In this document: in pieces, positions 4,677 to 41,726 of the stretch
Numbering within the stretch: position 1 is the first letter of the stretch
Layout of the letters: the number at the start of each line of letters is the position of its first letter
Assembly (NCBI GenBank): GCA_050117895.1
Contig: JASFLX010000001.1
Coordinates: forward strand, 1 to 43,513
From: Desulfobacterales bacterium
GTDB taxonomy: Bacteria; Desulfobacterota; Desulfobacteria; Desulfobacterales; UBA11574
Reading direction: 5' to 3'
Length of the DNA: 43,513 nt
Notes under the pieces: model-generated
Seen by the model: the letters and a program-made list of their open reading frames with translations, nothing else
What the model was told of the DNA's origin: nothing
Databases searched by the model: none
Program-made: the position numbers and the translations under genes

Positions 4677-5273
4677 TCAGGGTTTTTCTATGACCAACCC
4701 GTCTTGAAAAATAACAACTGCTGTAATATCCGGCCCAAAATATGTCCACTCTTCCATGGTGGGATTAATGCCAACGATTACGCCACCCGGTGCAAATACA
4801 TCGATCTGGGGCTGATTCACTATTTCTGTTAAATCAGGGTATCCCATTTTACGGATAACATCTCTTTTCTTATCCCCGATTTCTATTTTTTTCATGTTTC
4901 TTTGAAAACTTTCTTTGGTTTCAGACAAAGAATTATCCATGTTTCGTGGGATCCCCCAGGCTTTGATTTCTTCTTTCTCCCGAGCTTCTTTTCTTGATTT
5001 TTCAAGATCTTTGGACTTGATATAAATGTCTCCAATTTTGTCAGTATGGATATAGGTTCCGCTTTCATCTTGCCGAAAATCATACTTCCCATTCATACCC
5101 GGCGGGATAGATATATCAAAATCATTGGGGTCGATATAATATTCACCCTCTTTGTCTATTGAGATGTAGATTCCACGCTCATCCTTATCAATATAGTAAA
5201 TTCCACCCGCATACACCATAGCTGGAAAAAGGCATATGAATAACATTGCAAGTAAAAATCTTGAAATTTTCAT
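4677..5273 (-). CDS. secreted protein with short internal repeats and a BamE/SmpA_OmlA-like C-terminus
   Basis: Signal peptide MKISRFLLAMLFICLFPAMVYA; repeated G-x-YY/YI-D-K motifs; charged linker; C-terminal IGDKKRDVIRKMGYPD...EEWTY...FQDGLV resembles SmpA/OmlA; GAGGGGG RBS upstream. Confidence 0.6.
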   Translation of the reverse strand: MKISRFLLAMLFICLFPAMVYAGGIYYIDKDERGIYISIDKEGEYYIDPNDFDISIPPGMNGKYDFRQDESGTYIHTDKIGDIYIKSKDLEKSRKEAREKEEIKAWGIPRNMDNSLSETKESFQRNMKKIEIGDKKRDVIRKMGYPDLTEIVNQPQIDVFAPGGVIVGINPTMEEWTYFGPDITAVVIFQDGLVIEKP

Positions 5274-6153: not shown

Positions 6154-6362
6154 GTTAAAATCTGTTCTTTCTTTACGAACCTTTTTTATGGTTTTGTATG
6201 ATGGTGTTGTTGATTATTCATGGAGCTATTGAATCGAAAAGACTCCCCGACATATCCACGGGTATGCCTGCGGTTTTCGCAAACCCTTATGCATCAAGAT
6301 CTCAGCACATCTCTTCCCAAAAAATCGCTCGACTTAGTTTAAAATAAGATGAATTCGACCGG

Positions 6363-8906: not shown

Positions 8907-9123
8907 TTGTCCATCCATAAATGAGGTTTTTTGTTCAAGATCAAGACATGTGAAAAAAATAACCACCCCGGTACGATCTGCCGGCCCTGTCCCGGCATTT
9001 TCACGGGGACCTACGGGGCAGGCAGGCATATGTTTAATATTCCGAGGATTATTTTTTGAGCATAACGCAGAGACTTGTCCGCCTCCGGCGGATTGGGCAA
9101 AAAGACCATTTATGGGTGGACAC
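8907..9123. repeat. palindromic MITE-like element, copy F (long variant)
   Basis: Terminal inverted repeat GTCCATCCATAAATG (8909-8923) / CATTTATGGGTGGAC (9107-9121), 1 mismatch. Central core GCAGGCATATGTTTAATATTCCGAGGA. Carries the 21-nt hairpin module ACTTGTCCGCCTCCGGCGGAT (9073-9093). Confidence 0.7.
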
Positions 9124-9161: not shown

Positions 9162-10178
9162 ATGAATAGTACAAAACATCTGATCTTTGCTAATTTATTA
9201 GTGATACTCATCATTAGTCTGGGGGTAGCCGGATATATGATGATCGAAGGGTGGAACCTTTTAGATGCGTTATATATGACCGTCACCACGCTGACCACGG
9301 TGGGATATGGCGAAGTACATGAGATGACAAAAATGGGGCAGGTGTTTACTATTATGCTCATCTGTGTCGGCGTTGCCTTCTTTTTGTATGTTGCCGGCGC
9401 TGTTGTCCAGTTCATGGTTGAAGGGCGAATCAGAACCATATTAGGGAGAAGAAGATTGGATAAAAAGATTGATCGACTGAAAAACCATTATATTATTTGT
9501 GGATATGGGCGTATCGGCAAGGTTCTTTGCAAAATGTTATTAAGAAAGCCCTTTGACCTGATCGTTGTTGAGAAGGATCCGGAGCTTATCCCGGTAATGG
9601 ACGCAGATAAAATTCTCTATGTGTCAGGTGATGCGACAAATGAAGAAAATTTGCTTAAAGCAGGATTGAATCGTGCGAAAGGGCTGATTGCCGCGCTGGC
9701 TACGGATACGGAAAATGTTTTCCTGGTGCTGACAGCCAGACAACTGAACCCCGACCTTTATATTATTGCAAGGGGAAGCAGTAACGAATCTAAGAATAAA
9801 TTGCATGCCGCAGGCGCCAACAAGGTAGAATTACCATACGATATGGGTGCCGTGAGTATGGCCCAGCGGATCATCCGTCCAACCGTGACCAATTTTCTGG
9901 AACTTGCCTTTGCTCACCGACGTAAAGATATTCAGATGGAAGAAATGCCGGTCCACTCTTCCTCTAATCTTGTCAATATCATGCTGAAAGATTCAGGAAT
10001 CAGGCAACAATTCAACTTGATAATCATTGCGATAAAAAAGCTTGATGGGAATATGCTGTTTAATCCTTCTTTTGAGACGGTTATCGAGGGCGGTGATACC
10101 GTAATTGCTGTGGGGCAGGAAAATAATCTTCAACAACTGGAAAAGATATTGAATCCAACAGGACAAGGGCTTGCCTAG
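9162..10178 (+). CDS. voltage-independent K+ channel with TrkA-N/TrkA-C (RCK) domains
   Basis: Selectivity filter TTVGYGE; Rossmann HYIICGYGRIGK; C-terminal RCK-C. Start set to ATG 9162 because the ORF-track extension from 9075 is a translation of repeat copy F. Confidence 0.85.
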   Translation: MNSTKHLIFANLLVILIISLGVAGYMMIEGWNLLDALYMTVTTLTTVGYGEVHEMTKMGQVFTIMLICVGVAFFLYVAGAVVQFMVEGRIRTILGRRRLDKKIDRLKNHYIICGYGRIGKVLCKMLLRKPFDLIVVEKDPELIPVMDADKILYVSGDATNEENLLKAGLNRAKGLIAALATDTENVFLVLTARQLNPDLYIIARGSSNESKNKLHAAGANKVELPYDMGAVSMAQRIIRPTVTNFLELAFAHRRKDIQMEEMPVHSSSNLVNIMLKDSGIRQQFNLIIIAIKKLDGNMLFNPSFETVIEGGDTVIAVGQENNLQQLEKILNPTGQGLA

Positions 10179-10348
10179 TGTCCATCCAGAAATGGTAGAT
10201 TTTGGTTTCCGGCAAGGCCCGAGCAAGTTTTCAACCTCCCCGAAAACATCACGGGATCTCCGACAGGCATAGCGCGCTATTTCGAGGATTGAAAACGAGC
10301 GAGAACGCCGCCGGGGGCCGAAAGATGCCGTTTATGGATGGACACTAG
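10175..10348. repeat. palindromic MITE-like element, copy A
   Basis: CTAGTGTCCATCCAGAAATGG (10175-10195) / CCGTTTATGGATGGACACTAG (10328-10348). Core CAGGCATAGCGCGCTATTTCGAGGATTGAAAAC. Near-identical to copy B except for a 28-nt internal insertion. Fills the whole convergent gap. Confidence 0.85.
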
Positions 10349-25867: not shown

Positions 25868-26015
25868 CAGAAGTGGTTTCAAAGCCTTCAATCAGGTTCA
25901 AAGTCAAGGCGGACCGAGGGGTTCAAACATAGGAATATATTTAATATTTCAAGTATTGAATCCTTCGGTCCAACACAGAAATTGGGCCTGAGGGGAGGTT
26001 TTGAAACCACTTCTA
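25868..26015. repeat. palindromic MITE-like element, copy D
   Basis: CAGAAGTGGTTTCAAA (25868-25883) / TTTGAAACCACTTCTA (26000-26015). Internal TCAAAGTCAAGGCGGACCGAGG and CAACACAGAAATTGGG shared with copy E. Confidence 0.75.
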
Positions 26016-26705
26016 CCCTGTTACTCTTTCTTTTATAATCTCAACATACATGGAGCCGGAATGATCAGATAGGATTTTCTTAAAGGCACTTATACTCTTA
26101 TCATGATCGCCCATGGCAGCATAAAGCTCTCCCAAGTTGAAAAGAGCCTCGTCCTTGATGGTATAATCCGGCGCTGAAGCAATGGCTTCAAAATAACTGA
26201 CTGCGGTTTTAAAATCTTTTTTTGCTTTATAAGAGTAGCCCAGCCCGTTTAAGCTTAAGTTTTTTATAAACATTTCGTCATTAAAATTTATTAGCGATTT
26301 TTTGTAAAGCTCTATTGCCTTGTCGTAATTTTTGGCGGTGTAACACATATTCGCATAAATAAAACTGGCCAGTTTACTCCCGTCTCTTTTTGAATATTTA
26401 TCCATAATAAGCTGCAAATCATTTTCCACATCAAAGAAGGCTTTTTCCGGAGTGCTGGTTTTCAATTTTGTCTGGTAGTTGATGATTACCTGCTGAAGCA
26501 AAGCAAAGGCTTTATCTTCGGATTTTTTTATAAAATACACCATTCCGATAATAATGATACTTATGATAACCATAACGCCCAAAGCGCTTGAAAAAATCAG
26601 CTTATATTCAGAGATAAATTCAAATAATTTTGCCCAAAAGCTTATAAACTCATCGGGTTCACTCAGGTCTCTTTTCCGGGATCGGGACACCCTTTTTTTC
26701 GCCAT
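26013..26705 (-). CDS. membrane-anchored TPR protein (YfgM-like)
   Basis: Basic N-terminus, single TM (ALGVMVIISIIIIGMVYF), then TPR repeats. The stop codon TAG lies in the terminus of repeat copy D. Confidence 0.7.
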   Translation of the reverse strand: MAKKRVSRSRKRDLSEPDEFISFWAKLFEFISEYKLIFSSALGVMVIISIIIIGMVYFIKKSEDKAFALLQQVIINYQTKLKTSTPEKAFFDVENDLQLIMDKYSKRDGSKLASFIYANMCYTAKNYDKAIELYKKSLINFNDEMFIKNLSLNGLGYSYKAKKDFKTAVSYFEAIASAPDYTIKDEALFNLGELYAAMGDHDKSISAFKKILSDHSGSMYVEIIKERVTG

Positions 26706-33008: not shown

Positions 33009-33214
33009 GCTCCATGAATAATCCGCAACACCACCGTACAAACTCATGCAAAGGGCTCGTAACGAAAAAACATTGGTTCAATATTTAAATAAATAGACCA
33101 AACAGGTAACATTTTTTATCTTTTCATTTCGAATTCATAAAAGCGCTGTTTTTTCGCAACGATCCCTAATGCATTCAAACAGTGCACGATGGTGTTGCGG
33201 ATCATTCATTCCGC
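33009..33214. repeat. 206-bp inverted-repeat element (second module family)
   Basis: GCTCCATGAATAATCCGCAACACCACCGT (33009-33037) against ACGATGGTGTTGCGGATCATTCATTCCGC (33186-33214), about 24 of 29 complementary. A related solo arm lies at 6198-6226. Confidence 0.65.
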
Positions 33215-33298
33215 TTAATTTTGAGCTCTAAATGAAAAACTCCCCGATTCCTAAATTTAATTAGTTTCAATTTAGAAATCTATATTGGGGACAAATTC

Positions 33299-33442
33299 AG
33301 TTTCCATCCAGAAATGGTAGATTTTGGCTTCCGGCAAGGCCCGAACGAGTTTTTAACCGCAGGCATAGCGCGCTATGTCGAGGATTGAAAACGAGCGAGA
33401 ACGCCGCCGGAGGCCGAAAGATGCCGTTTCTGGATGGAAACT
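33299..33442. repeat. palindromic MITE-like element, copy B (compact prototype)
   Basis: AGTTTCCATCCAGAAATGG (33299-33317) / CCGTTTCTGGATGGAAACT (33424-33442), 1 mismatch. Core CCGCAGGCATAGCGCGCTATGTCGAGGATTGAAAAC. Confidence 0.85.
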
Positions 33443-36233
33443 AATGTCTGGTCAAACTTCCATATATCCGTAACAGTTTGTCGGGCAGTTCGCGGACGTC
33501 AGATATCACATTGTGATGAACATTTCCATAAAGATCATCCAGCTTGGGATCTCCTGCAAAATTAACGGTTATGGCATGAGTATATATGTTTTTCGAACGC
33601 GCCTCGAATATGGCTTTTCGTGTATCTTCAATTGCATAATTTTGCTTGTAATCAACATCGTTGGGGAATCCGTCACCTAAAATAATCAATAAACGGACTT
33701 TTGAAGAAATCTCTTTAAGTTCACGGGTCGCATGGCGGATGGCGGCCCCCATTCGGGTGCTCCGTTGAGGCGTCATGGCATTAATACGCCGCTTGACAGT
33801 ATCATCCATATTTTCATCGAGATCTTTTATGCGAAAGTAATCCACTCCCAAGCGTCCGGTTCCGGAAAAACCTGCGATAGCAAAGGCATCTCCCACAACT
33901 TCCAGCGCTTCGCAAAAAAGTACGATAGCCTCCTTCTCCACATCCAGAACGGTCGCATTTGAACCCAAAACAGCGTTTGCTGTTGAACGTGACAGATCGA
34001 CAAGCAGGAGCACGGCAACATCCCGGGTCTGTTTAATGTGTTTGATATACAGCCTGTCCGATGGAATTTTTCCCGCCTTTTTATCTATGGCAAAGTCTAA
34101 CAGTGCCCGGTAATCGAACTCATCTCCCTCCGTCCATTGTCTTAATCTTATAAGTCCCTCGGGCTTCAACAGTTCAAAAGCATAGCGTATCCTTTTTACC
34201 AGGCCCCTGTAATGTTTTAATGTTAACTTATAAAAATCGCTTTCTTTTTCGGTTATAGATTTGTCGAGCACCCTCACATGAGAATGGAGATAATCCTGCA
34301 AGTTACAGTCCCATTCTTTGTGCCAGGTAACAATACCGGAAAAATCTTCTTTCTGAAGCACGATCGTGTCGTCAGTGCCGAGGAGTTCGGACAAATCCAT
34401 CCAGGATAAGTCTATGGAAACTTTTTGTTGGGATAACATATGAGGCCCGTGGTTTTTCCGAAAACATAATATAATTTCTTTCAGGTCCTGATGGGAAACC
34501 CTACCGTTGTTTTCCATCAGGCGTTTTTTAATATCCGATGTATAGACTTCAAACCCCTTTTCCACGAGTTGAACCTTTAAGATCCTGGCCAAACGCTCAT
34601 ATTTCCGATTCGCACGGAAAAAAAGATCAGGTCTTAATGTACGGCCAAAGGGTGTTTGCATGGGCTTATAAAATCCCTTAAGTTCTTTTTTATCATATGA
34701 CGTCTGGTTCAAAAGTCTTTCCATTTCCGGATAAATTCTGACAACAAGTTCCGCGCAGGACTCAACCGTAGAGTTTTCATTTATTCCTGTTTCGAAAGAA
34801 TCCTTTAACTGCTTGGTATAATTATATATTTTGGCATCCAAGCCAAAATGCTCTTTTTCTGAAATACCCAGGGCAATCCACAGATACAAAAGAAAGACCA
34901 TGTCAACCGGCTTATGGTTTTTAATCATCCGTTCGGCTTCTCGTTGAAGCACGGGAAGGGTCTGCCTGACCAGGCCCGGATACTGACGGTGCAACATCAA
35001 TCGGATGCGGCCGTGTTCGAAGATGGTGAACAAATCCGCTGCCAGCGCCGTGACCGGAAAATACGAGAAAAAACGCTCCAGATCAGATAGATCTTCCCCG
35101 TTTTGGATGACATCGAATTTTAAATCATAATCTTTTAATTCCGGGATGTCCCGGCATTTTTCCATGGCTTTTTCAAGATCAAAATCGAAGGTGCCAAACT
35201 CATAATGTCCGGCTTCAAGTCTTGCAAGGCATTTATATAGGGCTATGTTTTCGGCTTTTTGGGGAAAATGACTGATTTCATCAGGAAGGTATATGAACTT
35301 CCCGTCTGAACAGACAAAAATAATTTTATGGGGATCTGTTAGTAATGAATCCGGGAGTAAAGAAAGCGGCCGCACTGAAACTGCAAGGCCGGTTCTGGCC
35401 ATAAGATAACGGTTCAACTGCTGCCGAACCCGGGAAATATGAATCGTGACCTGCATATCGGTAAAGGTATCGATCCCGAATTTGGATTCCAGTGAAAGAA
35501 ATTTTTTTGTTAGTTTGGGGTTACGTTTTAATTTTTCGAGCCCCACTGAAACAAAACGACTTAAAGCCTCTTTGGAAAGCAGATCCAGTCCTTTTTCAAG
35601 GCCGTCCAGAAAAAAATCGGCCAGGTGACAATCAGCCTTTATCACGCGTCCAAGCTGTTCTGTCTGCCAGGCTCGCTTTGAAGAAGAAAAGGCACGCACG
35701 GCCCCGGGCAGGATATGAGCAAAATGCTGGCTCTGGACATAGGACATATCCTGGGAAAAGATATCGCCAAGCAAATCAAGGGTTGCAGATGCGGCTTCAA
35801 TCTGGTTTCCGTTTAATAATTCCGACAAAACCCTAAGCGGATCTTTCAGGGTATATGTACCTTTGTTCAGCATAATCTCGAGGGTTTGCAAAAAGCGCTT
35901 TAAAAAATGTTTGTCCCCGTATTTTATTACCGGCACAAGATGCTCGGCCATAATCCGCCCCAGCGTCGGACCGTTGCGCCCAAAGTTTCGGACCAGATCC
36001 CGGTAGCGAAAAATTTTTTTAAGATCAACATCCCCAATCAGATCCGCATAACCGATTGCCAGAGTTCGACCGAAAGAAATCTCTCGGGCTAATCCCCACA
36101 ACGTCTCTTCAACCAGCAATGTAAGGCTTTGGTTTGAAACCGGACTGTCTTTCTGATTCAAGGCAGTCGTAACCGCCTTTGCCAGGTCCGGATCGGCAAT
36201 AGCGAGCTGTTTGAGTGGATCTTCTTTGTGCAT
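33441..36233 (-). CDS. large VWA-domain protein (CbbO/NorD-like partner of a MoxR-class ATPase)
   Basis: 930 aa. C-terminal VWA with MIDAS LLLVDLSRSTAN and ILGDGFPND; long helical N-terminal region. Confidence 0.75.
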   Translation of the reverse strand: MHKEDPLKQLAIADPDLAKAVTTALNQKDSPVSNQSLTLLVEETLWGLAREISFGRTLAIGYADLIGDVDLKKIFRYRDLVRNFGRNGPTLGRIMAEHLVPVIKYGDKHFLKRFLQTLEIMLNKGTYTLKDPLRVLSELLNGNQIEAASATLDLLGDIFSQDMSYVQSQHFAHILPGAVRAFSSSKRAWQTEQLGRVIKADCHLADFFLDGLEKGLDLLSKEALSRFVSVGLEKLKRNPKLTKKFLSLESKFGIDTFTDMQVTIHISRVRQQLNRYLMARTGLAVSVRPLSLLPDSLLTDPHKIIFVCSDGKFIYLPDEISHFPQKAENIALYKCLARLEAGHYEFGTFDFDLEKAMEKCRDIPELKDYDLKFDVIQNGEDLSDLERFFSYFPVTALAADLFTIFEHGRIRLMLHRQYPGLVRQTLPVLQREAERMIKNHKPVDMVFLLYLWIALGISEKEHFGLDAKIYNYTKQLKDSFETGINENSTVESCAELVVRIYPEMERLLNQTSYDKKELKGFYKPMQTPFGRTLRPDLFFRANRKYERLARILKVQLVEKGFEVYTSDIKKRLMENNGRVSHQDLKEIILCFRKNHGPHMLSQQKVSIDLSWMDLSELLGTDDTIVLQKEDFSGIVTWHKEWDCNLQDYLHSHVRVLDKSITEKESDFYKLTLKHYRGLVKRIRYAFELLKPEGLIRLRQWTEGDEFDYRALLDFAIDKKAGKIPSDRLYIKHIKQTRDVAVLLLVDLSRSTANAVLGSNATVLDVEKEAIVLFCEALEVVGDAFAIAGFSGTGRLGVDYFRIKDLDENMDDTVKRRINAMTPQRSTRMGAAIRHATRELKEISSKVRLLIILGDGFPNDVDYKQNYAIEDTRKAIFEARSKNIYTHAITVNFAGDPKLDDLYGNVHHNVISDVRELPDKLLRIYGSLTRH

Positions 36234-39307: not shown

Positions 39308-39530
39308 TAGGGAGACCTTTGAAAAATGTCAATTTTTGTTTAAGTTCAAGGCAATTCTGCAGGATAGCAGAATTGGACAGCTGCCAAGCTGCCCGCAAGG
39401 GCGAGGGGCATGGACGCCCCGAGTCAACGCGATAATTTTAACCGCAGGAATACATTGAGTATTTTGAGGATTAAAATTTGAGCCTGACGCAGAAATTGAG
39501 CAAAAAGAGGCGTTTTTCAAAGGTCTCCTA
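39308..39530. repeat. palindromic MITE-like element, copy C (long variant)
   Basis: TAGGGAGACCTTTGAAAAATG (39308-39328) / CGTTTTTCAAAGGTCTCCTA (39511-39530). Core CCGCAGGAATACATTGAGTATTTTGAGGATTAAAATT. Confidence 0.75.
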
Positions 39531-40478: not shown

Positions 40479-41726
40479 GTGAGATCTGTGAAAAGCTTAT
40501 TTTTGAAATTTTTTATCCTGACGGGTATGCTGCTGGGGTTGCCCATGCTGGGTGTGGTTCTGGCAGGGTATCCAATGACCCGGTATCTGGAGTTTCCCCC
40601 TGAAACCCGGTATGTTTTTCATGCACCCTTTTCATGGATTGCCTTCATTGCTTACACCCTTTTTATCCTTGCAGTGGTTCTTCCCTTTATCGTAAATTCC
40701 ATGGTTCGAATCCCACAATTTAAAATCAGACCTTCGGTCACTAGAAGCCATCTCAAAAATAGGATTTTGGCTCAAGGTCAAGGCAGGACCGAGTTTCAAC
40801 CCGCAGGCATACTCAAGTATGTCGAGGACTTGAAAGGAGGGCCTAACACAGAGATTGAGGAAAAAGACTTTTTTGAGATAGCTTCTAATACGTTCCCCTG
40901 GTGGGGATGGATGGGTTCACTCACCGGCGCGGTTTCATGGATATTGGCATGGACCCGTTTTTCCTGGTTTGCCCCATATCAGCCTCACACATTCATTCCG
41001 TTGTGGCTTTCTTTCATCCTGGTGATAAATGCCCTGTGCCATAAACGAACCGGGCACTGCATGATGATAGACCGCACCCGTTTTTTTCTTTTGCTTTTTC
41101 CTTTAAGCGCCGCATTTTGGTGGTTCTTTGAATACCTGAACCGGTTTGTCCAGAACTGGAGCTACACCGGGGTTCATTATAGCTCCTGGGAGTATTTCTG
41201 CTATGCAACACTCTCTTTTTCAACCGTACTTCCCGCGGTTTTGGGAACTCGGGAATGGATGGCCGGTGCTTTCCGTACCCGGCAGGGAGTGTGGGATTTT
41301 CACCCCTTGAGGTTCCCGTATCCCAGAATGTTGGCAGGGGCTGCCCTACTGATATCCGGTGCCAGCCTGGCCGGCATCGGCGTCTGGCCGAATTATCTTT
41401 TTCCTCTCCTATGGGTATCTCCTCTCATTGTTATTGTGTCACTCCAAACCCTGACCGGTGAACGCACGATCCTGTCGGGTATAACCAAAGGAGATTGGAG
41501 CCTGATCATCACGTCCGCAGCCGCCGCTCTTTTATGCGGAGGATTCTGGGAGATGTGGAACTATTACAGTTTGGCCAGATGGGAATACAGCGTCCCGTTT
41601 GTTCATGGGTTTCAAATCTTTGAAATGCCGCTCTTAGGTTATGCCGGGTATCTCCCCTTTGGCTTGGAATGTATGGTTTTCGGAGATTTGCTGGAACGGT
41701 GGATGAGGTTTCGCAGCACAATATAG
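40479..41726 (+). CDS. polytopic membrane protein of unknown function carrying an in-frame repeat insertion
   Basis: 415-aa ORF with about 9-10 hydrophobic helices. Residues about 88-136 are the translation of repeat copy E. Confidence 0.6.
   Translation: MRSVKSLFLKFFILTGMLLGLPMLGVVLAGYPMTRYLEFPPETRYVFHAPFSWIAFIAYTLFILAVVLPFIVNSMVRIPQFKIRPSVTRSHLKNRILAQGQGRTEFQPAGILKYVEDLKGGPNTEIEEKDFFEIASNTFPWWGWMGSLTGAVSWILAWTRFSWFAPYQPHTFIPLWLSFILVINALCHKRTGHCMMIDRTRFFLLLFPLSAAFWWFFEYLNRFVQNWSYTGVHYSSWEYFCYATLSFSTVLPAVLGTREWMAGAFRTRQGVWDFHPLRFPYPRMLAGAALLISGASLAGIGVWPNYLFPLLWVSPLIVIVSLQTLTGERTILSGITKGDWSLIITSAAAALLCGGFWEMWNYYSLARWEYSVPFVHGFQIFEMPLLGYAGYLPFGLECMVFGDLLERWMRFRSTI
40742..40887. mobile_element. 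palindromic MITE-like element, copy E, inside a CDS
   Basis: TAGAAGCCATCTCAAAAA (40742-40759) / TTTTTGAGATAGCTTCTA (40870-40887), 17 of 18 complementary. Core CCGCAGGCATACTCAAGTATGTCGAGGACTTGAAAG. Confidence 0.8.

Follow-up and report, generated by a model that had tools for sequence, protein, structure and literature searches.

A hairpin repeat inserted in frame in a membrane-protein gene of a Desulfobacterales bacterium

The window analysed here is the 43,513-nucleotide stretch of contig JASFLX010000001.1 (assembly GCA_050117895.1) from a Desulfobacterales bacterium, and it contains a palindromic repeat, termed element E, that lies inside the open reading frame (ORF) of a polytopic membrane protein and is read through without breaking it. 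Element E belongs to a family of dispersed repeats, orthologous loci differ from the carriers by the presence or absence of 144 bp at this one site, the ORF is intact in all carriers, and the sequence flanking the insert has been under purifying selection. We consider it very likely that a hairpin-forming miniature transposable element with inverted repeats (MITE) of the subfamily represented by element E (E-type) landed at a TA dinucleotide in the gene, added 48 codons in frame and has since been inherited under purifying selection on the host gene.

Element E and the site of insertion

The features on which the argument depends are the following.

40479-41726, + strand: host gene, encoding a 415-aa polytopic membrane protein (ORF; 364 aa in insert-free orthologues)
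40635-40709, + strand: residues 53-77, transmembrane (TM) helix 2, on the upstream side of the insert (AlphaFold2 secondary structure, hydropathy)
40742-40743, no strand: left TA, one copy of the putatively duplicated target dinucleotide (filled/empty comparison, TA/TA flanks)
40743-40886, + strand: the 48 extra codons, protein residues 89-136 (translation; 48-residue gap in 95 of 98 homologues; predicted local distance difference test score, pLDDT, of 52-67)
40744-40885, + strand: core of element E, 142 bp, GAAGCC...GGCTTC, E-type subfamily (fold, nhmmer, subfamily alignment)
40744-40812, 40813-40816 and 40817-40885: left arm, tip loop and right arm of element E (fold)
40886-40887, no strand: right TA, the putative other copy of the duplicated dinucleotide (same evidence as the left TA)
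40899-40952, + strand: residues 141-158, TM helix 3, on the downstream side of the insert and starting with the invariant FPWWGW (AlphaFold2, hydropathy, alignment)

Element E measures 146 bp (40742-40887), that is, a 142-bp core with TA on either side, and is a near-perfect hairpin with the ends TAGAAGCC...GGCTTCTA, also written TAGAAGCCATCTC...GAGATAGCTTCTA. A single strand of it forms one long hairpin, imperfect and with four bases (40813-40816) at its tip, whose free energy is -53.3 kcal/mol (z = -6.2); none of 200 dinucleotide-preserving shuffles equals this stability, and no terminator-like motif was found in or just after the hairpin. A profile from the other copies in the window matches it with E = 8e-36 to 2e-39 (nhmmer; 1.9e-39 for the core), which places its membership of the family far beyond chance. 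When the element is counted together with its TA, the reading frame starts at its second base, and the translation is RSHLKNRILAQGQGRTEFQPAGILKYVEDLKGGPNTEIEEKDFFEIAS.

The 48 added residues are hydrophilic (grand average of hydropathy, GRAVY, -0.75; seven K/R and eight D/E). In an AlphaFold2 (AF2) model of the host protein built with a 98-sequence alignment (mean pLDDT 80, predicted template modelling score, pTM, 0.77), they form three short helices of low confidence (pLDDT 52-67) that lie between the helices of residues 53-77 and 141-158. RIPQFKIRPS, the loop native to this position, and the N-terminus of the protein are both rich in K/R, and under the positive-inside rule this places the TM2-TM3 loop in the cytoplasm; we infer that the insert-bearing loop probably faces that side. 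A preliminary description, made from the sequence alone, had reported a 146-bp palindrome with TA ends at these coordinates, lying in frame in the 415-aa ORF and encoding a hydrophilic stretch between two hydrophobic helices. The re-read sequence and the fold agree with it in every particular, the open frame runs through 40743-40886, and the topology prediction that it had proposed as a check, made here with AF2 and hydropathy, puts the insert in the TM2-TM3 loop.

Filled and empty sites

Loop length was compared across 98 aligned homologues in the stretch between the invariant residues P69 and F139. This stretch has 21 residues in 88 of them, 18-23 in seven more, and 69 in the remaining three (the window, P0001 and P0002), an excess of exactly 48. 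Longer homologues (379-398 aa) were considered as further carriers and rejected, as their extra length is at the termini and not in the TM2-TM3 loop. In the DNA alignment, one clean gap of 144 bp, with TA at its borders, separates the four filled alleles from ten empty loci, for four of which synteny was shown, and the presence of the same neighbours on insert-free contigs identifies true orthologous loci. The filled site reads ...TCGG(T/C)CA(C/T)-TA-[142 bp]-TA-ATACGTTCCCC, in condensed form GxCAC-TA-[core]-TA-ATACG, and the closest empty site (locus L008) reads ...TCGGCCACTTATACTTTCCC, listed also as GCCACTTATACT. When the core and one TA are taken out of the window sequence, GCC ACT AAT ACG remains, for which L008 has GCC ACT TAT ACT; within the target a single base differs, in a codon that is C/T/A-AT among orthologues.

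A duplication of the TA target accounts for the arithmetic of the insertion, 142 + 2 = 144 bp or 48 codons, and no secondary indel is required, the length of element E being canonical for its subfamily. Judging from the empty-site comparison and from the TA/TA flanks of other E-type copies, the TA would be the target duplication of element E, which fits what the preliminary description had supposed. Its figure of 144 bp, or 48 codons, for the net gain holds against the orthologous empty sites, and the orthologue comparison that it had set out beforehand gave the predicted outcome: syntenic orthologues lack exactly these 48 residues, and the segment belongs to a dispersed repeat.

Carrier alleles and selection

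Four alleles of the host gene carry the insert, with amino-acid identity given relative to the window.

Window: the reference allele
L127: JGI Ga0180432, 97% identity
L001 = L002: two JGI samples, 94% identity
L003: ENA, a 1632-bp metagenome contig with the gene at L003:268-1515, 88% identity

Since these alleles come from five independent assemblies, an assembly artefact is ruled out. All four keep the full ORF, with no frameshift and no stop, across at least 12% nucleotide divergence. A four-point distance test on the flanks groups the carriers against the empty alleles (internal branch about 2%), the carriers share both junctions and derived states (for example the peptide IEEK, where the subfamily consensus has IGQK), and identity to element E is only 76-85% for E-type copies at non-orthologous sites of other genomes. 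On these grounds the simplest history would be one insertion in the ancestor of a small carrier clade, inherited since.

The ratio of non-synonymous to synonymous differences per site (pN/pS) in the flanks is 0.20-0.39 overall between carriers, specifically 0.25 for the window and L001 (p = 3e-6 against neutrality), 0.36 for L127 and L001 (p = 7e-4) and 0.20 for the window and L003 (p = 4e-19). Values this far below neutrality between carriers indicate purifying selection after the insertion, and hence that the gene is not a pseudogene. Within the insert, about four synonymous and about seven non-synonymous changes have arisen across the four alleles, the radical ones being G/D, E/K, G/R and PAG to TKS, so that constraint on the peptide looks relaxed there.

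A family of hairpin repeats

The family profile was built from the first related palindromes (10175-10348 and 33298-33443, by repeat finding and pairwise alignment) and searched with nhmmer. Six family copies lie in the window, with E-values of 1e-11 to 1e-39 and in one orientation throughout; those other than element E are listed here.

8908-9122, + strand: GTGTCC type, with two extra GC-rich mini-hairpins (nhmmer, termini)
10175-10348, + strand: GTGTCC type, its TA-G being the TAG stop of a K+-channel-like gene ending at 10178 (nhmmer, termini)
25869-26014, + strand: GAAGTGG type, its terminal C-TA being the stop of the minus-strand gene 26013-26705 (nhmmer)
33298-33443, + strand: GTTTCC type, its terminal C-TA being the stop of the minus-strand gene 33441-36233 (nhmmer); an orthologous copy is present in L002
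39311-39528, + strand: GAGACC type, adjoining the stop codon of a purN-like gene; present in L127, not in L001/L002 (about 5-bp duplication)

The centre of the family is nearly invariant and orientation-specific, AACC[G/A]CAGG[A/C]ATA..TAT[T/G]T[C/T]GAGGATT, and the right arm contains AAC[G/A]CAGAGATTGGG; the outer arms vary yet remain complementary. A core-pattern scan of one genome per GTDB species matched at least 118 stretches, nearly all from metagenome-assembled genomes (MAGs) of Desulfobacterales/Thermodesulfobacteriota and some from Desulfosarcina alkanivorans PL12 and Desulfobacterium sp. N47, and the profile recovers at least 118 full-length copies from the window and the loci found by that scan (L009-L126). 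RNAalifold, applied to 66 copies of canonical length, gives a 40-pair hairpin in which 33 pairs are kept by two-sided changes in at least one copy, which makes the palindrome a maintained property of the family; these compensatory pairs fit co-evolving transposase-binding termini and RNA structure alike and cannot distinguish between them. Rfam 15 gave no gathering-score match anywhere in the window and, for one copy searched at E up to 10, only noise-level hits to CRISPR repeats (E of 3-9). A BLAST comparison of one copy with plasmids gave no match, and in the literature no paper describing a Desulfobacterales MITE was found. This hairpin-repeat family of the Desulfobacterales is apparently undescribed so far, and abundant.

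Grouped by terminus, the copies fall into subfamilies in which cores of 141-142 bp are the commonest. A core of 142 bp is modal in the larger subfamilies (12 of 27 GAGACC copies and 8 of 10 GAGCCAC copies) and is also that of undecorated E-type copies. The length of the target duplication goes with the terminus.

GAGACC...: duplication of 5 bp, exact in 12 of 27 copies
GAGCCAC...: duplication of 4 bp, exact in 8 of 10
GTGTCC/GTGCCC...: duplication of 6 bp, often TANNTA, exact in 7 of 24
GAAGCC... (E-type): TA on both sides in 8 of 12

For the E-type, 15 of 15 metagenomic ORFs that run through a copy imply ...T|A-GAAGC at the left end and TTC-T|A at the right, and therefore TA on both sides. 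The copy at 39311-39528 provides a further filled/empty pair: the window and L127 are filled (TTAGG-element-CTAGG), and L001/L002, which differ from the window by 4% there, are empty (CTAAG). In each subfamily the termini pair as inverted repeats, for example GAAGCCATCTCAAAAA / TTTTTGAGATAGCTTC. The family thus consists of small, dispersed copies without coding capacity of their own, with inverted termini, target duplications and filled/empty sites, and on the strength of the filled/empty pairs and the subfamily-specific duplications it is a MITE family in the usual sense. Repeats of the REP/BIME class (imperfect palindromes of 20-40 bp that have a GTAG/CGTC head and lack a target duplication) do not fit, with element E at 142-146 bp and duplications present. 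Duplication of TA, a trait of IS630/Tc1-mariner elements, is seen in the E-type subfamily only. Solo termini and pairs of termini 0.6-3.5 kb apart, examined in 1.1 Mb of related DNA as candidate ends of a parent insertion sequence (IS), led to no transposase; the pairs enclose threonine-aldolase-like, NAD-kinase-like and SPFH-like genes, their function being judged from translated sequences.

Some further observations concern the family and its surroundings. Several subfamilies coexist within this one window, and the + orientation of all six copies has a two-sided chance of about 0.03, with multi-copy loci elsewhere being mixed. Extra GC-rich mini-hairpin modules recur at fixed internal positions in the copies 8908-9122, 10175-10348 and 39311-39528 and in L012, L017, L043, L054 and L108, as ...CCCGCCTCTGGCGGG... 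on the right arm and a module of about 48 bp on the left arm, which suggests that the architecture of the family is modular or nested. Directly upstream of the copy at 33298 lies a different palindrome (33014-33209; 27-nt arms, 89% complementary, 142 nt apart), and a partial relative of it, inverted, lies at 6163-6226 (64 nt, 81%). The orthologous locus L005 has a family copy of its own in the divergent promoter region (L005:49-206), and in L008 a solo terminus lies near 5188, with the membrane gene on one side and the glycosyltransferase gene on the other; with copies around the same gene in both, the neighbourhood is a recurrent landing zone.

Copies within genes and at gene ends

Among 114 independent full-length copies from the window and the scanned loci, element E is the only one whose surrounding ORF is long and credible. 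Four further candidates for an intragenic position (L025, L026, L071 and L081) were set aside, as their read-through ORFs of 168-253 codons are of low complexity and look spurious. An ORF of at least 100 codons ends at a terminus in 37 of the 114, where about 8 would be expected at random positions. In the window, the TAG stops at 10176-10178, 26013-26015 and 33441-33443 are formed by the terminal TA-G or C-TA of the copies, and the stop at 39528-39530 sits within the duplication of copy 39311-39528.

Searches with the 48-aa peptide covered 5.8 billion proteins and 1.84 billion cluster representatives. They retrieved 125 short proteins (from the word-indexed database) and 541 cluster representatives, and the matches are nearly all ORFs of 44-140 aa made up of the repeat and its flanks. 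These searches, which miss inserts in long proteins (the first one missed P0001 and P0002), found no second internal fusion, and their insensitivity makes the absence of further fusions weak evidence. Two longer matches were rejected: P0266, a lipoprotein of 212 aa, owes its match to a called ORF that was extended upstream through a family copy, and P0247 (3597 aa) is a repetitive adhesin whose score is the sum of weak matches. A Pfam domain was found in none of nine longer matches. Among the metagenome gene calls P0121-P0364, which come from public catalogues, the 'hypothetical proteins' of 44-140 aa are the family repeat in one frame with unrelated flanks, and hundreds of such small 'hypothetical proteins' are made by gene callers from copies of this family.

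The preliminary description had gone on to suggest that the family can remodel proteins. This stands for element E itself, but no second convincing intragenic copy appeared among the 114; residence within genes is hence exceptional, unlike that of the Rickettsia palindromic elements (RPEs), and the wider suggestion comes down to the one event described here.

Proposed mechanism and alternative readings

We propose that element E is a DNA transposon of the non-autonomous kind, a miniature inverted-repeat element whose palindrome takes up its full length. A copy of the GAAGCC subfamily would have entered the TA within the codons ACT-AAT of the short, K/R-rich TM2-TM3 loop and duplicated that TA. 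The reading frame would have gone on because 142 + 2 = 144 = 48 x 3 and because the copy had no stop in that frame. The host protein would in this way have gained a 48-residue hydrophilic and poorly ordered stretch in a loop that is probably cytoplasmic. Mobilisation was presumably in trans, by a DDE transposase, and the added peptide may best be regarded as a passenger and not as a functional module.

Several points weigh against this proposal. Only the E-type subfamily duplicates TA, its sister subfamilies having duplications of 4, 5 or 6 bp, which is unusual in one family, and 1.1 Mb of related DNA yielded no autonomous element whose termini match. At the closest empty site the sequence is ACTTATAC and not ACTAATAC, so the exact pre-insertion sequence is a reconstruction, and likewise translation of the insert is deduced from the way the sequence has evolved. 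Finally, between the window and L003 the flanks differ at 11.8% of positions and at 78 of 253 synonymous sites (31%), whereas the insert differs at 3 of 144 positions and at 0 of 29.5 synonymous sites (p = 1.6e-5; p = 2e-5 for the synonymous contrast between insert and flanks), and a simple model of an old neutral passenger does not predict this.

The insert is likewise less diverged than the flanks in the other two comparisons that involve L003 (p = 4e-4 and 8.5e-3), and comparisons among the window, L127 and L001 show no such contrast. One reading is that the insertion is younger than the divergence of the flanks implies, the segment having been spread by recombination, the flanks of L003 having been overwritten piecemeal, or L003 being chimeric. 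We regard this as possible but doubtful, and it would alter the history of the event and not its nature. The zone of low divergence (gene nt 241-432) matches the insert with about 25 nt on each side, the contrast is confined to the three comparisons with L003, and L003 is a metagenome contig of only 1632 bp; on the other hand, the four-point test on the flanks still places L003 with the carriers, and one flank difference lies just 5 nt from the junction. As to the cause of the contrast, mosaic flanks seem the likeliest from the sequence pattern. Flanks may be overwritten by insert-less relatives, but the insert could not be replaced in this manner without being deleted, and it would therefore stay less diverged. 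A chimeric 1.6-kb contig is another candidate, and constraint on the insert is less likely. Gene conversion is a further candidate cause.

That constraint would have to exist if the insert were more than a passenger, either because the hairpin is constrained as nucleotides (slowing the ribosome at TM2-TM3, or affecting mRNA stability) or because the peptide has been recruited as a loop. The absence of synonymous change in the insert between the window and L003, the retention of a hairpin of about -46 to -57 kcal/mol in all four alleles and the ORF kept through at least 12% nucleotide divergence speak for such a role. We nevertheless think it unlikely. The inserts of the window and L127, and of the window and L001, evolve at the speed of the flanks, and the changes that do arise weaken the hairpin, from -56.8 kcal/mol in L003 to -45.8 kcal/mol in L001; this speaks against the fold being strongly selected. 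Non-synonymous changes outnumber synonymous ones in the insert and some are radical, AF2 confidence is low throughout it, and the anomaly is limited to one 1.6-kb metagenome contig.

A related idea, which we rate a little lower still, is that the E-type is an RPE-like 'coding palindrome' outside Rickettsia, with one consensus frame open, a near-constant copy, and a hairpin or loop that has acquired a role. If true, that role might be, for example, the pacing of translation between TM2 and TM3 or a new interaction surface. Of the independent E-type copies from GTDB genomes that were compared, only three (E, L105 and the 145-bp L067) have the frame used in element E open, though many metagenomic copies do; an open frame across the whole family was ruled out for the GTDB copies.

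It is very improbable that the insertion inactivated the gene, leaving a young pseudogene whose frame is open by coincidence, as the preliminary description had allowed for. A hairpin of -53 kcal/mol within the mRNA could hinder expression, but the ORF is full in four alleles from five assemblies, the gene order is conserved, and the flanks have the low pN/pS given above, with p down to 4e-19. An ancestral origin of the 48 residues, with loss from the other orthologues, has nothing in its favour beyond the presence/absence pattern itself and is refuted by the facts that the segment copies a repeat with more than 110 occurrences, most of them intergenic, that it is bounded by TA and the inverted termini of the family, and that, of more than 5600 homologues, its carriers make up a single small clade, with the 21-residue loop shared by 88 of 98.

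The host gene and its neighbours

The host ORF starts with GTG (ATG in allele L127), and its protein has more than 5600 homologues, of which all named ones are from Desulfobacterales-type MAGs. Neither Pfam nor NCBIfam gave a match for the protein family, and Foldseek against the PDB gave none with E <1. The family is Trp-rich and polytopic, with the conserved motifs FPWWGW, FWWFFEYLNRFVQNW and FWEMWNYYS. Upstream, on the other strand, lies a purN-like formyltransferase gene, and downstream are genes for a GT1 glycosyltransferase and then a DUF362 protein; the purN-like and GT1 genes always flank the host gene, and the GT1 protein weakly resembles mannosylglucosylglycerate synthase.

Comparison with known systems

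Correia elements (NEMIS, in Neisseria) and RUP (in Streptococcus pneumoniae) are hairpin MITEs of 100-160 bp with a duplicated TA. Correia elements carry an integration host factor (IHF) site and promoter elements, and RUP is linked to IS630-Spn1. The Desulfobacterales family is like both in being mostly intergenic and near gene ends. It differs in taxa and in that one subfamily duplicates TA and the others 4-6 bp, and whereas RUP has a partner IS, none was found for the present family in 1.1 Mb.

Small palindromic repeats fused in frame to host ORFs are established for RPEs, ERIC copies within genes, BOX and related repeats of pneumococci, Anabaena MITEs and QMITEs (PMC10969869, PMC3184786, PMC5896051). 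For RPEs this bears out the statement of the preliminary description that translated in-frame palindromes are established in Rickettsia (PMC10969869), and roughly half of RPE copies are within ORFs (Ogata et al. 2000, 2002, as summarised in PMC10969869). Element E resembles an RPE in being a palindrome of about 150 bp that is in frame and is read as an extra hydrophilic peptide with the host protein intact. RPEs are set apart as families of Rickettsia, and the present family has one of 114 copies in a gene, target duplications and a filled/empty pair; its hosts, moreover, are free-living Desulfobacterales.

QMITE1 and QMITE2 of Coxiella burnetii overlap gene 3' ends, provide stop codons or short C-terminal tails and are occasionally found mid-ORF in frame (PMC5896051). 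This is paralleled here by the 37 of 114 copies that abut an ORF end and by the TA-G that forms the TAG stop at three gene ends in the window, but the mid-ORF cases of QMITE are in hypothetical proteins, whereas the host of element E is conserved and has many insert-free orthologues, and the host organisms are unrelated. ERIC/IRU and BOX are small repeats with open frames fused to chromosomal ORFs (Delihas 2007; Croucher 2011, as cited in PMC3184786) and differ from the present family in sequence family and host. The Chunjie MITE of Geobacter uraniireducens (178-235 bp, 21-bp terminal inverted repeats, 9-bp direct repeats; Chen et al. 2008, as described in PMC3184786) is a 'deltaproteobacterial' MITE with a very stable fold and some copies that overlap protein genes; the present family is distinct from it in its 142-bp core and its duplications of 2, 4, 5 or 6 bp.

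By analogy with these systems, element E appears to work like known in-frame MITE fusions and is a clean, fresh example of a principle that is not new. The features that are unusual in its family are the near-invariant tip, the variable termini and duplication lengths, and the ends that write the stop codons of neighbouring genes. The locus also offers a natural before/after case, in which thousands of insert-free relatives can be set against a small clade that has carried a transposon-derived loop of 48 residues through species-level divergence, and it indicates that protein remodelling driven by MITEs happens in free-living anaerobes too, beyond the reduced genomes of intracellular bacteria.

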